A stretch of DNA of 64,000 bases from Oscillospiraceae bacterium (GCA_015063645.1 SVTS01000004.1:1155-65154); one strand, 5' to 3'; counted from the first letter of the stretch, positions 11,047 through 55,520 are shown. The notes: generated from the letters alone by a model not told the origin. Made by a program: numbers and translations.

Positions 11047-11076
11047 CCCCAAGGGGTGTCGGGGGCGAAGCCCCTG
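11047..11076. repeat. short copy of GC-rich palindromic repeat family A
   Basis: CCCCAAGGGGTGTCGGGGGCGAAGCCCC; shares GGGGTGTCGGGGGC-N3-GCCCC with 19496, 53950 and 15079 copies. Confidence 0.6.
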
Positions 11077-11113
11077 CATAACCAAAACAATCCACTCCAT
11101 CGGAGGAACACCC

Positions 11114-12347: not shown

Positions 12348-13898
12348 ATGCTGCATCTTGCATCCACATCCCGCAGCCGCGTCTGCGGATTTCTGCGCGC
12401 CGACGGACGGCGCCTTGTGAATGAGCGCGGTGAAGAAGTTATCCTCACCGGCATGGGACTGGGCAACTGGCTTCTGTGGGAGGGCTACATGTGGCGGCTG
12501 TACGGCAAGTATGACCGTCCGCGCACCATCGAAACATTGCTCTGCGAGTTGTGCGGTGAGGAGTACACCGCCGATTTCATCCGCCGCTTCAGAGAGAATT
12601 ACATCACCCGTGAGGATGTACGCCGCATGGCGGAGGAGGGATTCAACTCCGTCCGTGTGCCCATCGGCTGGCGTACGCTCATGAAAAACGAGCCCGGCTA
12701 TCCCCTGATCGAAGAGGGATTTGCCCTGTTGGACCGCTTCATCGACTGGTGCGAGGAGGAGAAAATCTACGTGATTCTCGATCTCCACGGTGCACCCGGC
12801 GGTCAGACCGGCGCCAATATCGACGACTGCTTCGACGACCGTCCCCGTCTCTTCACTGATCCCGAATCCCGCGAGGCAGGACTGAAGCTGTGGCGCGCCA
12901 TGGCGGAGCGATATAAGGATCGCTGGATCGTGGCGGCGTACGATCTGCTCAACGAGCCGCTCCGTCCGGAAAGAGACGCCCGTTATCCCCGTATCCCCGA
13001 TTACAGAAACGATCTGGCGCAGTTCTACCGTGACTGCATCGCCGAGATCCGGAAGATTGACACCCGTCACACCGTGCAGGTGGAGGGCAGAAACTGGGCA
13101 AGCAAGGCGGATATCTTTGACGCGAAATGGGACAGCAATCTGGTGATCCATTTCCACCGCTACTGGTGCCGTCCCGACATCGCCGTTTATAAAGAATTCC
13201 TCGCCAAATCGGCGGAACTGGACGTGCCGCTCTATCTGGGCGAGACCGGCGAAAACAACAATGAATGGTATGCCGCCATGTATCCGCTGTCCCTGTCGCT
13301 GGGCATCGGCTGGAACATCTGGCCGTGGAAGAAGATGGCATGCACCAACTCCCCCTATTCCGTCCGTCCGCCAAAGGGCTGGGAAAAGATCCAGCAGTAC
13401 GGCCGCGGCGGCGAGCGTCCCTCATTCGCCGAAGCGCAGGCAATCCTGGACGGCTATCTGGAAAATATGAAGATCGAAAACTGCGACTACAATCCCGCCG
13501 TGACCGCATCCTTCTGCCGCCGTCCCGGCAGTGCGTGGAAGGCAGCCGATTTTGATGAACTGCCCGGCAGGGGCATCTCGTACTTCGGCGAAGCCGTGCT
13601 GGATCGGGGCATTTACCGGGACGGCACAGGCATGCGCCTTGTGGGCGGTAATGAATGGAATCAGCTGGATCTGCTTCTCGCCCCCGGCGAGTGGGCGGAA
13701 TATTCCATGAGCGAATCCGCCGCGGGCGGCACGCTGCACATCATCGGCGATGGTGAGATCACCGTCACCGCAGGCAATGAGACGCTTGGCACAGGCACGC
13801 TTCCGCTGGATGTAAAGATCCCCGCCGGGGACGGCGAGATCACGGTGCGGATCACCGGCAATGCCCGTGCAAAACTGCACAAACTGGAATACCGCTGA
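12348..13898 (+). CDS. glycoside hydrolase family 5 protein with C-terminal beta-sandwich extension
   Basis: FNSVRVPIGW, ILDLHGAPGGQTG and YDLLNEP (GH5 acid/base NEP) motifs; no signal peptide; start assignment tentative because the RBS is distant. Confidence 0.8.
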   Translation: MLHLASTSRSRVCGFLRADGRRLVNERGEEVILTGMGLGNWLLWEGYMWRLYGKYDRPRTIETLLCELCGEEYTADFIRRFRENYITREDVRRMAEEGFNSVRVPIGWRTLMKNEPGYPLIEEGFALLDRFIDWCEEEKIYVILDLHGAPGGQTGANIDDCFDDRPRLFTDPESREAGLKLWRAMAERYKDRWIVAAYDLLNEPLRPERDARYPRIPDYRNDLAQFYRDCIAEIRKIDTRHTVQVEGRNWASKADIFDAKWDSNLVIHFHRYWCRPDIAVYKEFLAKSAELDVPLYLGETGENNNEWYAAMYPLSLSLGIGWNIWPWKKMACTNSPYSVRPPKGWEKIQQYGRGGERPSFAEAQAILDGYLENMKIENCDYNPAVTASFCRRPGSAWKAADFDELPGRGISYFGEAVLDRGIYRDGTGMRLVGGNEWNQLDLLLAPGEWAEYSMSESAAGGTLHIIGDGEITVTAGNETLGTGTLPLDVKIPAGDGEITVRITGNARAKLHKLEYR

Positions 13899-13911
13899 GG
13901 AGGAGACACCT

Positions 13912-15075
13912 ATGTCCGTACAGAACATTCCGGATCGTGAGATCGCCGCGGCACTGGCGGAAATGGAAGCCCTGTACGATCCGCAAAAGCAGCTGGACCT
14001 GTACACCGATCTCTATGATCCCGCCACGGGCGGCATGTATTTCTCCCTTCCCGCCGTCACGCGGGAGGGATTCGGTCCCAATATCGAATCCACCGCGCAG
14101 GCGGCACTGCCCGTCGCCCTCTACTCCGACGCGGAGAAAAAGAAGCTGGGCAGCTGGATACAAAGCCTGCAGGATCCCGTCACGGGCTGGTTCATGGAGG
14201 GGGAGTTTGATATTGCCTCCGCATCCGTGGGCAAGAAACAGCGCAACCATTTCATGGGCATGGCGGTGCTCCGCGCCTGCGGCATGACGCCGCTGTATCC
14301 CACCGCCACGGAACGTGCGGTACAGACACCGCCTCCCGCCGCCGACACGCCCGATGCGGCAGATGACTCCTATCTCTCCTCGCTGGACGCCTATATGGAT
14401 TGGGTGAAAAACAGCTACGACTGGGACGGAAACGATCCGACGAAAAAGCACGTCTGGCAGGCGGGCAATGACATCGGCGATTTTTCCGCACAGCTGAAAG
14501 AGATGGGCTGGCTGGACACAGTAGCGGCGTTCATCCGCTCCAAACAGCGTCCGGACAACGGACTTTTCACCGATGAGATCAGCATTGTGGGCATCTCCGC
14601 CGTGACGAAGCTGTCGGGAATGTACACCCTCACCGGCACGCCGATGCCCTACATGGACAAAATCATCGAATCCGCGGCGTATCTGGCGGAGACCGCCCGA
14701 TTCACCGCCGGATCGGAGCCGTACAACATTACGCTGGCGATGCGGTTTATGGTAAAAAGCGCCGGCGAGACAGGCATTGATGCGGATACGCAGGCGGCGC
14801 TCCGCCGTGCCGCACCGCGCTTCGTGCGGGGCATCGCCGGGGCGATGAAGGATTTTCGCAAAGCGGACGGCGGATTCGGCTACTGCGTGGGCGGTCCCTG
14901 TACCCATTCTCAGGGCGCCTACGTGACACCGCCGGGCATCGACTGCTCCGACGTGAACGGCAATCAGTTAGCGAAAGGCGTGCGGAACGATCTGTACTGG
15001 CTGATGGGTCTGGAAACCCCGCCGCTGTTCACAGATGAAGCGTTTTATGCAAGGATCAAGGCAAAAATGCGCTGA
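13912..15075 (+). CDS. hypothetical protein (possibly alpha/alpha-toroid like)
   Basis: 387 aa from ATG at 13912 with RBS GAGGAGGAG; coding GC3 pattern; no firm family recognised. Confidence 0.6.
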   Translation: MSVQNIPDREIAAALAEMEALYDPQKQLDLYTDLYDPATGGMYFSLPAVTREGFGPNIESTAQAALPVALYSDAEKKKLGSWIQSLQDPVTGWFMEGEFDIASASVGKKQRNHFMGMAVLRACGMTPLYPTATERAVQTPPPAADTPDAADDSYLSSLDAYMDWVKNSYDWDGNDPTKKHVWQAGNDIGDFSAQLKEMGWLDTVAAFIRSKQRPDNGLFTDEISIVGISAVTKLSGMYTLTGTPMPYMDKIIESAAYLAETARFTAGSEPYNITLAMRFMVKSAGETGIDADTQAALRRAAPRFVRGIAGAMKDFRKADGGFGYCVGGPCTHSQGAYVTPPGIDCSDVNGNQLAKGVRNDLYWLMGLETPPLFTDEAFYARIKAKMR

Positions 15076-15078
15076 CAC

Positions 15079-15158
15079 CGGAGGGGGTCGGGAGCGAAGC
15101 CCCCGGAATTCTAAAATATCCAAGGGGGTCAAAGGGGGAACAGAGTTCCCCCTTGCAG
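15079..15158. repeat. 80-bp palindromic repeat element (family A), flanked by 11-bp direct repeat TGCGCTGACAC
   Basis: GGGGGTCGGGAGCGAAGCCCCCGG ... GGGGGTCAAAGGGGGAACAGAGTTCCCCCTTG; direct repeats at 15068..15078 and 15159..15169. Confidence 0.7.
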
Positions 15159-15204
15159 TGCGCTGACACATAAAGCAAGATATCAAAAAGAAAGGATCAC
15201 CACC

Positions 15205-18614: not shown

Positions 18615-19490
18615 ATGAAAATCTCAACCACCACCTATCCTTACTGCAATGCCCACGGCACAGCAGAAGCCATCCGCCTGATCGCCAACGCAGGTTTTGA
18701 CTGCTACGATTATTCCGTGTTCGATATCTCCGAAAATAATCCTCTGTACTGCGACGGCTGGCGCGATTACATTGCCGATCTGCGCCGGAAGGCGGATGCG
18801 CTGGGCATCGCCTGCAATCAGGCCCACGCGCCCTTTCCCACCAGCAAACTGCCCACGCCCTCAAACGAGGCGTACAATGATACCATCACCGACAAGGTGA
18901 TCCGCTCCATGGAAGCGGCGGCAATGCTGGGCGCAAAAGCCATCGTCGTCCATCCGAAACAGCATCTGGATCACTGGGATCACATCGAGGATCATTTCCG
19001 GATCAATATGGAGTTCTACCGTTCCCTGGCTCCGTATGCAAAACAGTTCGGCATCAAGATCGCCCTGGAAAACATGTGGCGTACCCGCGACGGAAAAATT
19101 GTGGAATCCACCTGCTCCTCCGCTGAGGAATTCAACCGCTATTTTGATACCCTCGCCGATGACTGCTTCACCTGCTGTCTGGATCTGGGACACTGCGGTC
19201 TGACCGGTTTCAAAGCGGAAGACATGATCCGTGCCATGGGAAAGCGCATCGGCACGCTCCATGTCCACGACAATGACGATTTCCACGACTCCCACACCCT
19301 GCCCTTCAACGGCAAAATGAACTGGGAAGCTATCACGCAGGCGCTGGGCGAAATCGGCTACGAAGGCGATTTCACCTACGAAACGACTGCTTATCAGAAA
19401 AAGATTCCCGATTATCTGATGCCCGATGCCCTCTCCTATATGGAGAAAATGGCACGCCGCCTCTGCGAACAAATCGACGCCGCAAGATAA
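18615..19490 (+). CDS. sugar phosphate isomerase/epimerase (xylose isomerase-like TIM barrel), paralog 2
   Basis: Start at MKISTTT (RBS AAAGGAGA); by eye more than half of residues identical to paralog 1, same C-terminus ..YMEKMAR.L...IDAAR. Confidence 0.85.
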   Translation: MKISTTTYPYCNAHGTAEAIRLIANAGFDCYDYSVFDISENNPLYCDGWRDYIADLRRKADALGIACNQAHAPFPTSKLPTPSNEAYNDTITDKVIRSMEAAAMLGAKAIVVHPKQHLDHWDHIEDHFRINMEFYRSLAPYAKQFGIKIALENMWRTRDGKIVESTCSSAEEFNRYFDTLADDCFTCCLDLGHCGLTGFKAEDMIRAMGKRIGTLHVHDNDDFHDSHTLPFNGKMNWEAITQALGEIGYEGDFTYETTAYQKKIPDYLMPDALSYMEKMARRLCEQIDAAR

Positions 19491-19495
19491 AGAAT

Positions 19496-19578
19496 CCGGG
19501 GGGTGTCGGGGGCTCTGCCCCCGACCACAACTAACTTAACCGGGGGGCAAGGGGGACGGAGTCTCCCTTGACTGACGA
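19496..19578. repeat. full-length palindromic repeat element, family A
   Basis: CCGGGGGGTGTCGGGGGCTCTGCCCCCGACCACAACTAACTTAACCGGGGGGCAAGGGGGACGGAGTCTCCCTTGACTGACG. Confidence 0.7.
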
Positions 19579-19635
19579 ACGGTTATCGAACCCACCGCGG
19601 CTGTCGCCGCATAAAAAACAAAGGAGTCTCCCACC

Positions 19636-53615: not shown

Positions 53616-53735
53616 CGGGGGAGGGAACGGCGGGGCGCTGCCCCGGACCCCGGCAGGACTCTGTCCTGCACCTGGCAGGGGACGAGTCCCCTGCACCCCG
53701 CAGCTGGTGAAGCCGTGGAGATTGTGCGGGTTTGG

Positions 53736-53797
53736 GTGCCGCAAATACTTGCGGCACGGATTTGGCTTGCCATACTTGCGGCGCAAATACTTGCGCC
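53736..53797. repeat. three tandem mini-hairpin units GC(C)GCAAATACTTGCG(G)C
   Basis: GTGCCGCAA-atac-TTGCGGCAC, partial GCCATACTTGCGGC, GGCGCAA-atac-TTGCGCC. Confidence 0.6.
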
Positions 53798-53866
53798 GGA
53801 AGCGCAGTCCGAACACCGCTGAAGCGGTAATTACCGCTAATCTTTATTGGATTCACCGAAGGATAT

Positions 53867-54037
53867 CGGGAGCTGTACCCCCAAACCAACTCCATTTGAT
53901 CCGCGGGCGGCAGCACCGGCTGTCCCCCCGACCAACTTCACTTGATTCGCCGGGGGTGTCGGGGGCTGTGCCCCCGACCGCAACCTGACTTCTCGGGGGG
54001 TCAAGGGGGGCAGAGCCCCCCTTGCCATGCGCTGCAC
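53867..54037. repeat. family A palindromic repeat: two degenerate half-units plus one full unit in tandem
   Basis: Three ~45-nt units sharing GCTGTNCCCCC(G)ACCNAAC..ACTT..CG, the last continuing into GGGGGGTCAAGGGGGGCAGAGCCCCCCTTGCCATGCGCTGCAC. Confidence 0.7.
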
Positions 54038-54089
54038 AAAAATTACAGCTATCAAAAATAAAACAATAATACAAAGGAACAACGACACT

Positions 54090-55520
54090 ATGAAACTCTA
54101 CAATTCTCTCTCCCACGAAAAAGAGGAATTCATTCCCCACGAGCCGGGCAAGGTGAGCATGTACACCTGCGGTCCGACCGTGTATCATTTCGCGCACATC
54201 GGCAATCTGCGTTCCTATATCATGGAGGATGCGCTGGAGAAATATCTCCGCTACGACGGTTACGACGTAAAGCGCGTTATGAACATCACCGACGTAGGTC
54301 ATCTGACCAGCGACGCGGACACCGGCGAGGACAAGATGCTCAAGGGTGCGAAGCGCGAGAAGAAAACCGTCATGGAGATCGCGAAATTCTACACCGACGC
54401 GTTCTTCGCTGACTGTGAAAAGCTGAACATCAAGAAGCCCGACGTGATTGAGCCGGCAACCGGCTGCATTCCGGAGTTCATTCAGATGGTACAGGGACTG
54501 CTGGAAAAGGGCTACGCCTACATTTCCGGCGGCAACGTGTATTTTGACACCTCCAAGCTGGAAAAGTATTACGTCTTCAACAATTTTGAGGCGGAAGATC
54601 TGGAAGTCGGCGTCCGTGAGGGCGTTGAGGAGGACACCAGCAAGAAGAACAAGGCGGACTTTGTTCTGTGGTTCACCAAGTCCAAGTTTGAGGATCAGGA
54701 ACTGAAGTGGGACAGCCCCTGGGGCATCGGTTATCCCGGCTGGCATATTGAGTGCTCCGCCATCAGCCTGAAGCACAACGGCGAGTATCTGGATCTGCAC
54801 TGCGGCGGCATCGACAATGCGTTCCCGCATCACACGAACGAAATTGCTCAGTCCGAGGCGTATCTGGGACATCCGTGGTGCAAATACTGGTTCCACATTC
54901 TGCATCTGAACACAAACAGCGGCAAGATGAGCAAATCCAAGGGCGAATTCCTGACGGTTTCCCTGCTGGAGGAGAAGGGCTACGATCCGATCGTATACCG
55001 TTTCTTCTGTCTGCAGTCCCATTACCGCCGCTCGCTGGTCTTCTCCTGGGAGGGGCTGGACAATGCCGCAACGGCGTATGACAAGCTGATCGCGAAGATC
55101 GCCGCGCTGGATCCGGCGAAGAAGGAGCCGGCAAACGCGGATGCGGAAGCCGCTGTACGCGCATCCTTCAAGGAAGCGCTGGACAACGATCTGAACACAT
55201 CTCTGGCGGTAACGGCGGTATACGATGTGCTGAAGGCACCGATCTCCGACGCGGCAAAGAGACAGATTCTGGGTGAGTTCGACGCGGTGCTGTCGCTGAA
55301 TCTGCTGAAGGCGGCAGACGCGAAGCGCGCGGAGGCAGAGACGGATGCGCCTGCCGGCGACAGCGAGCTGATCGCGAAGATCGAGGCGATGATCGCCGAG
55401 CGTGCGGCTGCGAAGAAGGCGAAGAATTACGCCCGTGCGGACGAGATCCGCGCTGAGCTGAGCGCGATGGGCGTGACGCTGAAGGACACGCCGAACGGCA
55501 CGGAGTTTACGATTGCGTAA
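54090..55520 (+). CDS. cysS: cysteine--tRNA ligase
   Basis: MYTCGPTVYHFAHIGNLR (HIGH), KMSKSKG (KMSKS); start at MKLYNSL 54090. Confidence 0.95.
   Translation: MKLYNSLSHEKEEFIPHEPGKVSMYTCGPTVYHFAHIGNLRSYIMEDALEKYLRYDGYDVKRVMNITDVGHLTSDADTGEDKMLKGAKREKKTVMEIAKFYTDAFFADCEKLNIKKPDVIEPATGCIPEFIQMVQGLLEKGYAYISGGNVYFDTSKLEKYYVFNNFEAEDLEVGVREGVEEDTSKKNKADFVLWFTKSKFEDQELKWDSPWGIGYPGWHIECSAISLKHNGEYLDLHCGGIDNAFPHHTNEIAQSEAYLGHPWCKYWFHILHLNTNSGKMSKSKGEFLTVSLLEEKGYDPIVYRFFCLQSHYRRSLVFSWEGLDNAATAYDKLIAKIAALDPAKKEPANADAEAAVRASFKEALDNDLNTSLAVTAVYDVLKAPISDAAKRQILGEFDAVLSLNLLKAADAKRAEAETDAPAGDSELIAKIEAMIAERAAAKKAKNYARADEIRAELSAMGVTLKDTPNGTEFTIA

Follow-up and report, generated by a model that had tools for sequence, protein, structure and literature searches.

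Is a perfect 11-bp direct repeat that brackets a short hairpin unit at the end of a gene the duplicated target of an insertion, or do both copies belong to the element itself? This question is posed by a locus in a 64,000-nt stretch of DNA from an Oscillospiraceae bacterium (GCA_015063645.1, SVTS01000004.1:1155-65154; hereafter called the window). An earlier note on the window had described an 11-bp motif at 15068..15078 and 15159..15169 around exactly 80 bp, with the TGA stop of the coding sequence 13912..15075 inside the first copy, and had seen the same motif at the end of another copy of the element at 53950..54037. All of this is confirmed: both coordinates are exact, the gene ends in ATG CGC TGA at 15067-15075, and the distant copy ends in CATGCGCTGCAC. 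The features of the locus are as follows.

13912..15075, + strand: 387-aa ORF without a Pfam family, its stop codon lying within the 5' repeat copy
15068..15078, + strand: 5' copy of the 11-mer TGCGCTGACAC, in which lie the final Arg codon of the 387-aa ORF and its TGA stop (15073-15075)
15079..15158, + strand: two-hairpin cassette of 80 bp, composed of a G-run with hairpin H1, an A/T-rich spacer, and a G-run with hairpin H2
15159..15169, + strand: 3' copy of the 11-mer TGCGCTGACAC, followed by ATAAAGCAAGATATCAAAAAGAAAGGA..., which aligns with the spacer sequence ATAAAACAAGCGATCCAAAAGAAAGGA of strain L196
15205..16326, + strand: gene with a serine-hydrolase/beta-lactamase fold (PF00144, E 7e-46; also synteny)

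Both hairpins of the 80-bp unit are of the same G5/C5 type, each with a G-run before it. H1 reads CGGGAGC-GAA-GCCCCCG (15089-15105) with one stem pair that is broken in the window strain and intact in other strains, and H2 reads AAGGGGGAAC-AGA-GUUCCCCCUU (15132-15154) and forms a firm 10-bp stem in RNA folding. The unit starts with CCGGAGGGGG and ends with CCCCCTTGCAG, has neither CAATG.. ends nor terminal inverted repeats, and holds no ORF.

Only two exact copies of TGCGCTGACAC are present in the window and six in the 3.03-Mb draft genome (53% GC). Short-range direct repeats as such are common in this genome, since exact repeats of at least 11 nt with a spacing of 40-200 nt account for 683 events compared with ca. 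260 raw coincidences in order-3 Markov simulations, and the pair could on these grounds be regarded as a coincidence or an assembly artefact without mechanistic meaning. Against such a view, repeats of at least 11 nt bracket 2 of the 67 hits of the repeat family described below but just 8 of 5,000 random placements (0.16%), and no comparable flanking repeat was found at any other short family copy. These statistics would not be sufficient to carry the finding alone; that the pair is biologically meaningful is shown, as far as assembled sequences can tell, by an empty site in the related strain L196.

The alleles of this site were compared among strains, of which L196-L199 came from the 90% cluster of the 387-aa protein. 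Besides the window, L036-L040, L046, and L197-L199 carry the insert (about ten contigs). The earlier note had proposed to look for orthologous empty sites in related strains, and L196 (NCBI GCA_045586085.1, metagenome-assembled contig JAZMZO010000188.1 of a MAG, ca. 1% diverged) provides one, with one copy of the motif. Its gene order begins with a GH5 gene (516 aa) that is followed by the same 13-nt junction as in the window (CGCTGA/GGAGGAGACACCT/ATG), the 387-aa ORF ending in KMR*, a spacer, and the hydrolase gene. This spacer (TGA/CAAATAAAACAAGCGATCCAAAAGAAAGGAACCACC/ATG) measures 36 nt versus 129 nt (15076-15204) in the window and contains a single motif copy (TGCGCTGACAA; TGCGCTGACA(A)) and no hairpins, so that in the site, which reads ...GGCAAAAATGCGCTGACAAATAAAACAAG..., the left flank runs through one motif copy into the right flank. 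Apart from a further 2-nt indel close to the ribosome-binding site, L196 is shorter than the window by 91 bp.

On the evidence of these alleles, the unit together with one 11-mer is thus a 91-bp insertion/deletion polymorphism within one species that is bounded by the repeat, and the 11-mer pre-existed once, formed by the end of the 387-aa ORF and the first leader bases of the next gene. The stop codon and the motif are therefore chromosomal target rather than element DNA, and the sequence after the 3' copy is the native leader of the hydrolase gene, whose positions 15170-15204 form the right flank of the insertion. Aligned with the empty allele, the filled site accordingly has the footprint left by an insertion with duplication of the target. 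This bears out the target-site duplication by insertion at a gene end that the earlier note had proposed, with a native 11-mer as the duplicated sequence. Drift to TACGCTGACAC is seen at the 5' copy of L197-L199, whose 3' copy is still TGCGCTGACAC, and the two motif copies therefore evolve independently. The empty allele lacks exactly one repeat and the intervening 80 bp, and separate assemblies of different samples gave the filled allele in 10 contigs. This independence, together with a difference of exactly 91 bp, effectively refutes a coincidence or artefact, to which we attach next to no probability.

In the window, a GH5 cellulase gene, the 387-aa ORF, and the serine hydrolase gene follow each other in the same direction. 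A syntenic relative (L181/L182), found via homologues of the hydrolase (88% identity), has the GH5 gene followed after 24 nt by the hydrolase gene without the 387-aa gene and without hairpins, and its GH5 terminus ...TAC CGC TGA C.. lies directly 5' of the same hydrolase leader. What is missing from L181/L182 corresponds to window positions 13893-15075, that is, the entire 387-aa gene and its ribosome-binding site. The sequence CGCTGA, which is the last codon and stop of GH5, recurs at the terminus of the 387-aa ORF.

The 387-aa protein of the window ends in ..AKMR*, compared with a longer ..AKPPITGTLI* in homologues of 73-81% identity, and the DNA homology to these ends at the start of the 11-mer. 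They are non-syntenic and yielded no empty site, and no orthologue of the gene came up when the 13 other species of the genus were searched at the DNA and protein levels. Taken together, these observations suggest that the 387-aa gene is itself an insertion of gene size, with 6 nt duplicated at its junctions, and that this event may have removed the native 6-8 C-terminal residues. The C-terminus ..AKMR* is identical in filled and empty strains and, because the empty strain L196 ends in the same way, this odd terminus would be older than the cassette and stem from the insertion of the 387-aa gene after the GH5 stop.

The origin of the unit itself was approached with an nhmmer family model built from full-length copies, alongside pattern scans of the genome. 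The model has 67 hits in the genome, ca. 16 of them of full length, and recognizes the window unit with an E-value of 9e-6 across model positions 43-119, which cover only the H1-spacer-H2 core. The best identity of the unit to other genomic copies is 72-77%, and by this measure it is a divergent representative of an interspersed repeat family specific to the species, further copies of which lie elsewhere in the window:

11049..11087, + strand: partial family copy with H1 only (nhmmer E 3e-4, model positions 47-87)
19494..19585, + strand: short family copy with H1 and H2 (nhmmer E 2e-13, model positions 45-135)
53950..54037 (family match to 54023), + strand: sibling copy e2 with H1 and H2, then TGCGCTGCAC once, in a 474-nt spacer upstream of cysS

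The same core is found inside longer elements, namely a ca. 190-nt "type 1" form and a sharply bounded 206-nt "type 2" form with the ends CAATGTCATTAACTTAAG.../...CTTAAGTTAATGACATTG. Copies of type 2 are flanked by 10-bp duplications that differ from locus to locus (CTTTGGCGAA, GGGACAATCC, GGCAACGCAT, and ATGC(C/A)GTATG), and some have inserted inside terminator-like hairpins. Ends of the form CAATGTCATTAACTTAAG, of which the genome contains ca. 60 occurrences that often adjoin contig ends, also bound a 375-bp foldback form with 10-11-bp duplications such as ATTATGATAAT. These ends match the signature published for the IS4 subgroup, "-AATR--------WTW", whose direct repeats measure 10-13 bp (PMC2266710, Table 1). 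Judged by their termini and flanks, the complete family members are MITEs, being non-coding, ending in terminal inverted repeats of the IS4 subgroup, and lying between target duplications of 10-11 bp that vary from copy to copy, and aligning copy ends in search of variable flanking duplications, as the earlier note had suggested, thus gave a positive answer for the full-length members. The note had also called the window unit a small non-autonomous element; this holds insofar as the family includes bona fide MITEs, but the unit itself is a MITE interior without terminal inverted repeats.

A gene for an IS4-type transposase (PF01609, DDE_Tnp_1) was not found in the 83%-complete assembly, whose contigs are broken by repeats, and BLAST searches of 12-13 other species of the genus found no full-length element apart from H1-only matches. 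Examples of the MITE superfamily are located at C111:73938-74312, C24:2960-3165, and C90:10714-10920, and its interiors come in at least three variants of 375 bp, of 206 bp with the H1/H2 core, and of ca. 190 bp with decayed tips. Many copies are situated 100-300 nt from contig ends, and these MITEs therefore seem to break the assembly.

Given this family, one might suppose that a complete IS4-type MITE entered TGCGCTGACAC with an 11-bp duplication and that both of its arms were later deleted by recombination between box and target. The resident MITEs do make 10-11-bp duplications, the length seen here (PMC2266710), the ca. 60 terminal-repeat hits point to a very active system, and the deletion end points would match microhomology between box and target. 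The scenario nonetheless demands three events, for which there are no intermediates among 11 contigs, and a target that resembles both boxes by chance. The MITEs moreover have a third hairpin (CCGCGGCGGTAGCCGCGG) between H2 and their 3' box, which should have remained but is absent here, and there is no trace of terminal repeats. We therefore regard such a trimmed MITE as highly improbable.

The boxes in question are a property of the full-length elements, in which the hairpin core lies between two similar GCTG boxes that read ..AAGCTGTCC or ..GAAAGCTGTCC before H1 and ..GCTGCAC, TGCGCTGCAC, or ..AAAAGCTGCAC after the hairpins. The 5' 11-mer of the window aligns with the family 5' box (A/G)GCTGTCC, and the likeness of the target TGCGCTGACAC to both core-flanking boxes suggests a homology-guided insertion or a site preference. 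The earlier note had cautioned that the motif might be the 3' terminus of the element or its preferred target: the likeness of target and box is real, but the motif is native in L196. It had likewise named copies that contain the motif once and lack duplicated flanks as speaking against a duplication. Three sibling loci (e2, C29:26017, and C29:1415) are of just this kind, with TGCGCTGCAC once, directly after the hairpin, and no 5' duplicate; the motif pair in the window and the empty site in L196 are not.

Three related ideas about the flanks were considered and abandoned. That both 11-mers are element boxes that replaced the end of the gene was dropped once L196 had revealed the empty site. 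The sequence beyond the 3' copy was considered as an element "tail" common to e2, C29:26017, and C29:1415, but it is native leader according to L196, and the post-box similarity among these loci and the window reaches a p of only ca. 0.004-0.015. A homology of this tail to the right arm of the MITEs found no support, since an HMM of 29 such arms gave no match to the flank after the 3' copy.

A different scenario would have both 11-mers as the element's own boxes, with gene, box, H1, H2, and box arriving as one block and L196 losing the unit by slipped-strand deletion that left a solo box; no chromosomal sequence would then have been duplicated. It can draw on the conserved GCTG boxes at both sides of the core, on the siblings that carry TGCGCTGCAC right after H2, and on the fact that the 3' 11-mer is the right end of a 1.27-kb gene-plus-cassette insertion relative to L181. 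However, the string shared between the two boxes is 3-8 nt and never 11 nt long in the 19 other two-box copies, so that the perfect 11/11 match calls for a duplication instead of the inheritance of two element boxes. The sequence CGCTGAC is, in addition, native, being the region of the GH5 stop in L181, and the scenario would merely push the source of the perfect repeat back to a donor that is unseen.

Strain distances, too, speak for a loss in L196. The flanking genes diverge by ca. 1% among the window, L196, L197/198, and L199 and by ca. 4.5% in L046, which is filled. A simple gain is awkward in this phylogeny because the most divergent, outgroup-like strain L046 is filled and L196 sits among filled strains at ca. 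1% distance, and simple parsimony on the flanking genes would favour a precise loss in L196. Under a gain, either such a precise loss or an allele exchange by recombination must be invoked for this strain. For polarity from outgroup synteny, P0012 and P0010 were found in other contexts, and two pattern scans of metagenomes, for the joined empty site and for the start of the hydrolase gene, gave no match, not even to the known filled contigs.

The spacers themselves point in the other direction. Compared with the filled flank, the 36-nt spacer of L196 (L196:3665-3700) contains 5 substitutions in addition to the 2-nt indel, which a fresh deletion would not leave and which thus argue against one. 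The nearest other changes private to L196 are 396 nt upstream and 174 nt downstream, with the flanks in between identical to those of the filled strains, and this concentration may represent a short recombination patch or a repair scar. The filled spacers of L046 and L197 are unusually uniform, with 2 differences in 129 nt. Such patterns suggest that spacer alleles have moved between lineages by recombination, and the tree of the flanking genes therefore need not equal that of the spacer. Finally, L181 (no gene), L196 (gene), and the window (gene and cassette) can be arranged as a simple series of two successive insertions, which would favour gain over loss. On balance, we consider it unlikely that the 11-mers are the element's own boxes and that L196 lost the unit; under either polarity, the unit is a discrete one whose junctions are marked by the repeat.

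The reading that we regard as probable is that a unit from the interior of the family inserted at a native 11-mer and duplicated it, by templated insertion and with an effect, if any, as a stem-loop. Plain cut-and-paste transposition of the 80-bp unit in the manner of IS4 is probably not the explanation because the unit lacks ends to which a transposase could bind. We infer that a templated, microhomology-guided insertion would be the most economical mechanism. The nascent strand would switch from the recipient 11-mer to the 5' box of a donor copy, copy the H1-H2 core of this donor and, at the donor's 3' box, switch back to the same recipient 11-mer, so that the 11-mer would come to lie on both sides. 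Correction of mismatches in the nascent strand towards the template could then make the two 11-mer copies identical. A near-identical donor was not found in the 83%-complete assembly, in which the best match reaches 77%, and neither was a donor with both boxes in the required form (GCGCTGTCC-H1-H2-TTGCxx-TGCGCTGCAC). A more far-reaching proposal, which we hold only tentatively and think less likely than not to be right, is that the G5/C5 core is mobile in its own right, without terminal repeats or a transposase of its own, by copy-choice insertion at box-like TGCGCTG(A)CAC sequences, and that it also travels as cargo of MITEs.

As to function, the unit places a stable stem-loop pair 4 nt after the stop codon, which could protect the 3' end of the mRNA or cause partial termination; we base this on what is known of REP sequences. 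No site resembling an intrinsic terminator was detected on the + strand between 14800 and 15400, where H2 is followed by UGCAGUGCGC and not by a U-tract, and no sigma-70-type promoter consensus was found at the unit.

Hairpins of this kind recur at other loci. The 474-nt hairpin-filled spacer before cysS (window 53616-54089) is specific to this lineage: all 10 relatives from the genus with cysS have only 20-35 nt between a CPBP-type gene and cysS. At C29:24808-26250 (L200), an alr-like gene starts with MKLYKTWAEI compared with M-N-G/P-Y-G-K-YKTWAEI in 11 relatives of the genus, and its upstream ca. 250 nt contain a hairpin array, H1, H2, a TGCGCTGCAC tail, and ATGAAACTCTACAA, paralogous to the cysS leader (window 53850-54103). 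A copy of the cysS leader and of the first four cysS codons seems to have been placed ahead of alr. Within MITEs such as the 375-bp form, and also in fragmentary state, a hairpin with the conserved loop ACTTCGGCG(A/T)TTGAGATGG recurs; it is present at C132:~900-990 and C29:~1400-1440 and, in the genus relative G001 (L002), ahead of the hydrolase gene. An ordinary cobalamin riboswitch (RF00174, 68.5 bits; L054:37-226, C94:~18956-19145) adjoins one of the full-length repeat copies.

Outside this group of genomes, "Clostridiales bacterium SIG372" (SVHA01..., L100-L165) harbors long intergenic tandem arrays of ca. 25-nt units that consist of a G-run and a short GC hairpin, and one of these units corresponds exactly to the H1 module GGGGGTGTCGGGGGCNNNGCCCCCGAC, which therefore seems much more widespread than the full element. 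A scan of the genome collection with the H1 pattern retrieved mostly unrelated GC-rich hairpins, together with hairpin arrays in other Clostridia MAGs, and not the window element.

The site thus documents filled and empty alleles within one species, in which a tiny hairpin repeat landed on a stop codon and left the protein unchanged. It exemplifies how hairpin-filled spacers build up in uncultured rumen Clostridia and connects hairpin units that stand alone with the interior of an IS4-type MITE family that is abundant but unannotated. For annotation, the 129-nt spacer should be taken as repeat DNA and not as a regulatory leader, and the odd C-terminus of the 387-aa protein as older than the cassette.

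Among known systems, the closest are the IS4-subgroup MITEs (De Palmenaer, Siguier, and Mahillon 2008, PMC2266710), whose end signature and 10-11-bp duplications are shared by the parent family of our unit, which is likewise non-coding and present in many copies, with several insertions inside terminator-like hairpins. The window copy shares the duplication length (11 bp, or 10 bp should the match of the last base be due to chance) and has a known empty site, but it differs in consisting of only ca. 80 bp of interior without terminal inverted repeats. IS4-type transposition also needs no likeness of the target to boxes inside the element, whereas the target in the window shows such likeness. 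The MIC231/IS231-type cassettes of the Bacillus cereus group serve as a comparison system for IS4-derived MITEs.

From Rfam, where no family reaches threshold for the element, the nearest entry is Clostridiales-2 (RF02937). Its first hairpin and G-run (GGGGGUGCAGGGGG..CCCCCUGCC) are nearly the same as the H1 module, but the second half of the model is unmatched by family copies. Weak hits to the model recur in five of these copies, in the correct orientation (19.8-25.5 bits versus a gathering score of 58.6), and the window between 14900 and 15400 has no hit even at E up to 10.

Correia elements (CREE/nemis) of Neisseria and the RUP and BOX elements of streptococci are similar in being small non-coding repeats at gene ends that can alter gene termini or transcript ends, and the modular build of BOX elements resembles that of the window family. 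Correia elements differ by 26-bp terminal repeats and a TA duplication, and Correia, RUP, and BOX elements share no sequence with the family and have no 10-11-bp duplication.

The REP, BIME, and REPIN sequences of proteobacteria with their RAYT proteins are alike in being short GC-rich intergenic hairpins just 3' of genes that form clusters and mosaics, and in a possible role as stabilisers of mRNA 3' ends. The window hairpins differ in that they are direct instead of inverted pairs and lack a GTAG-type 5' tetranucleotide, and REPs are not known for making 11-bp duplications. An association of the REP/RAYT kind was ruled out within the genome itself, since the hairpins flanking its three Y1 transposase genes (IS200-like, PF01797), CCACCCGCTAAGCGGGTGG and others, are unrelated to H1 and H2; TnpB was not found in the genome. 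Seen beside these systems, the element is one of the MITE-related intergenic hairpin repeats, a known kind of which it is an unannotated example, and its site is a fairly ordinary footprint of mobile DNA; the unusual point is the insertion of a core without terminal repeats. If the insertion truly happened in this way, it would be relevant to the long-standing problem of REP-like hairpin dispersal, and if the core is mobile by itself, it would represent a transposase-independent route for REP-like hairpins to the ends of genes in gut Clostridia.
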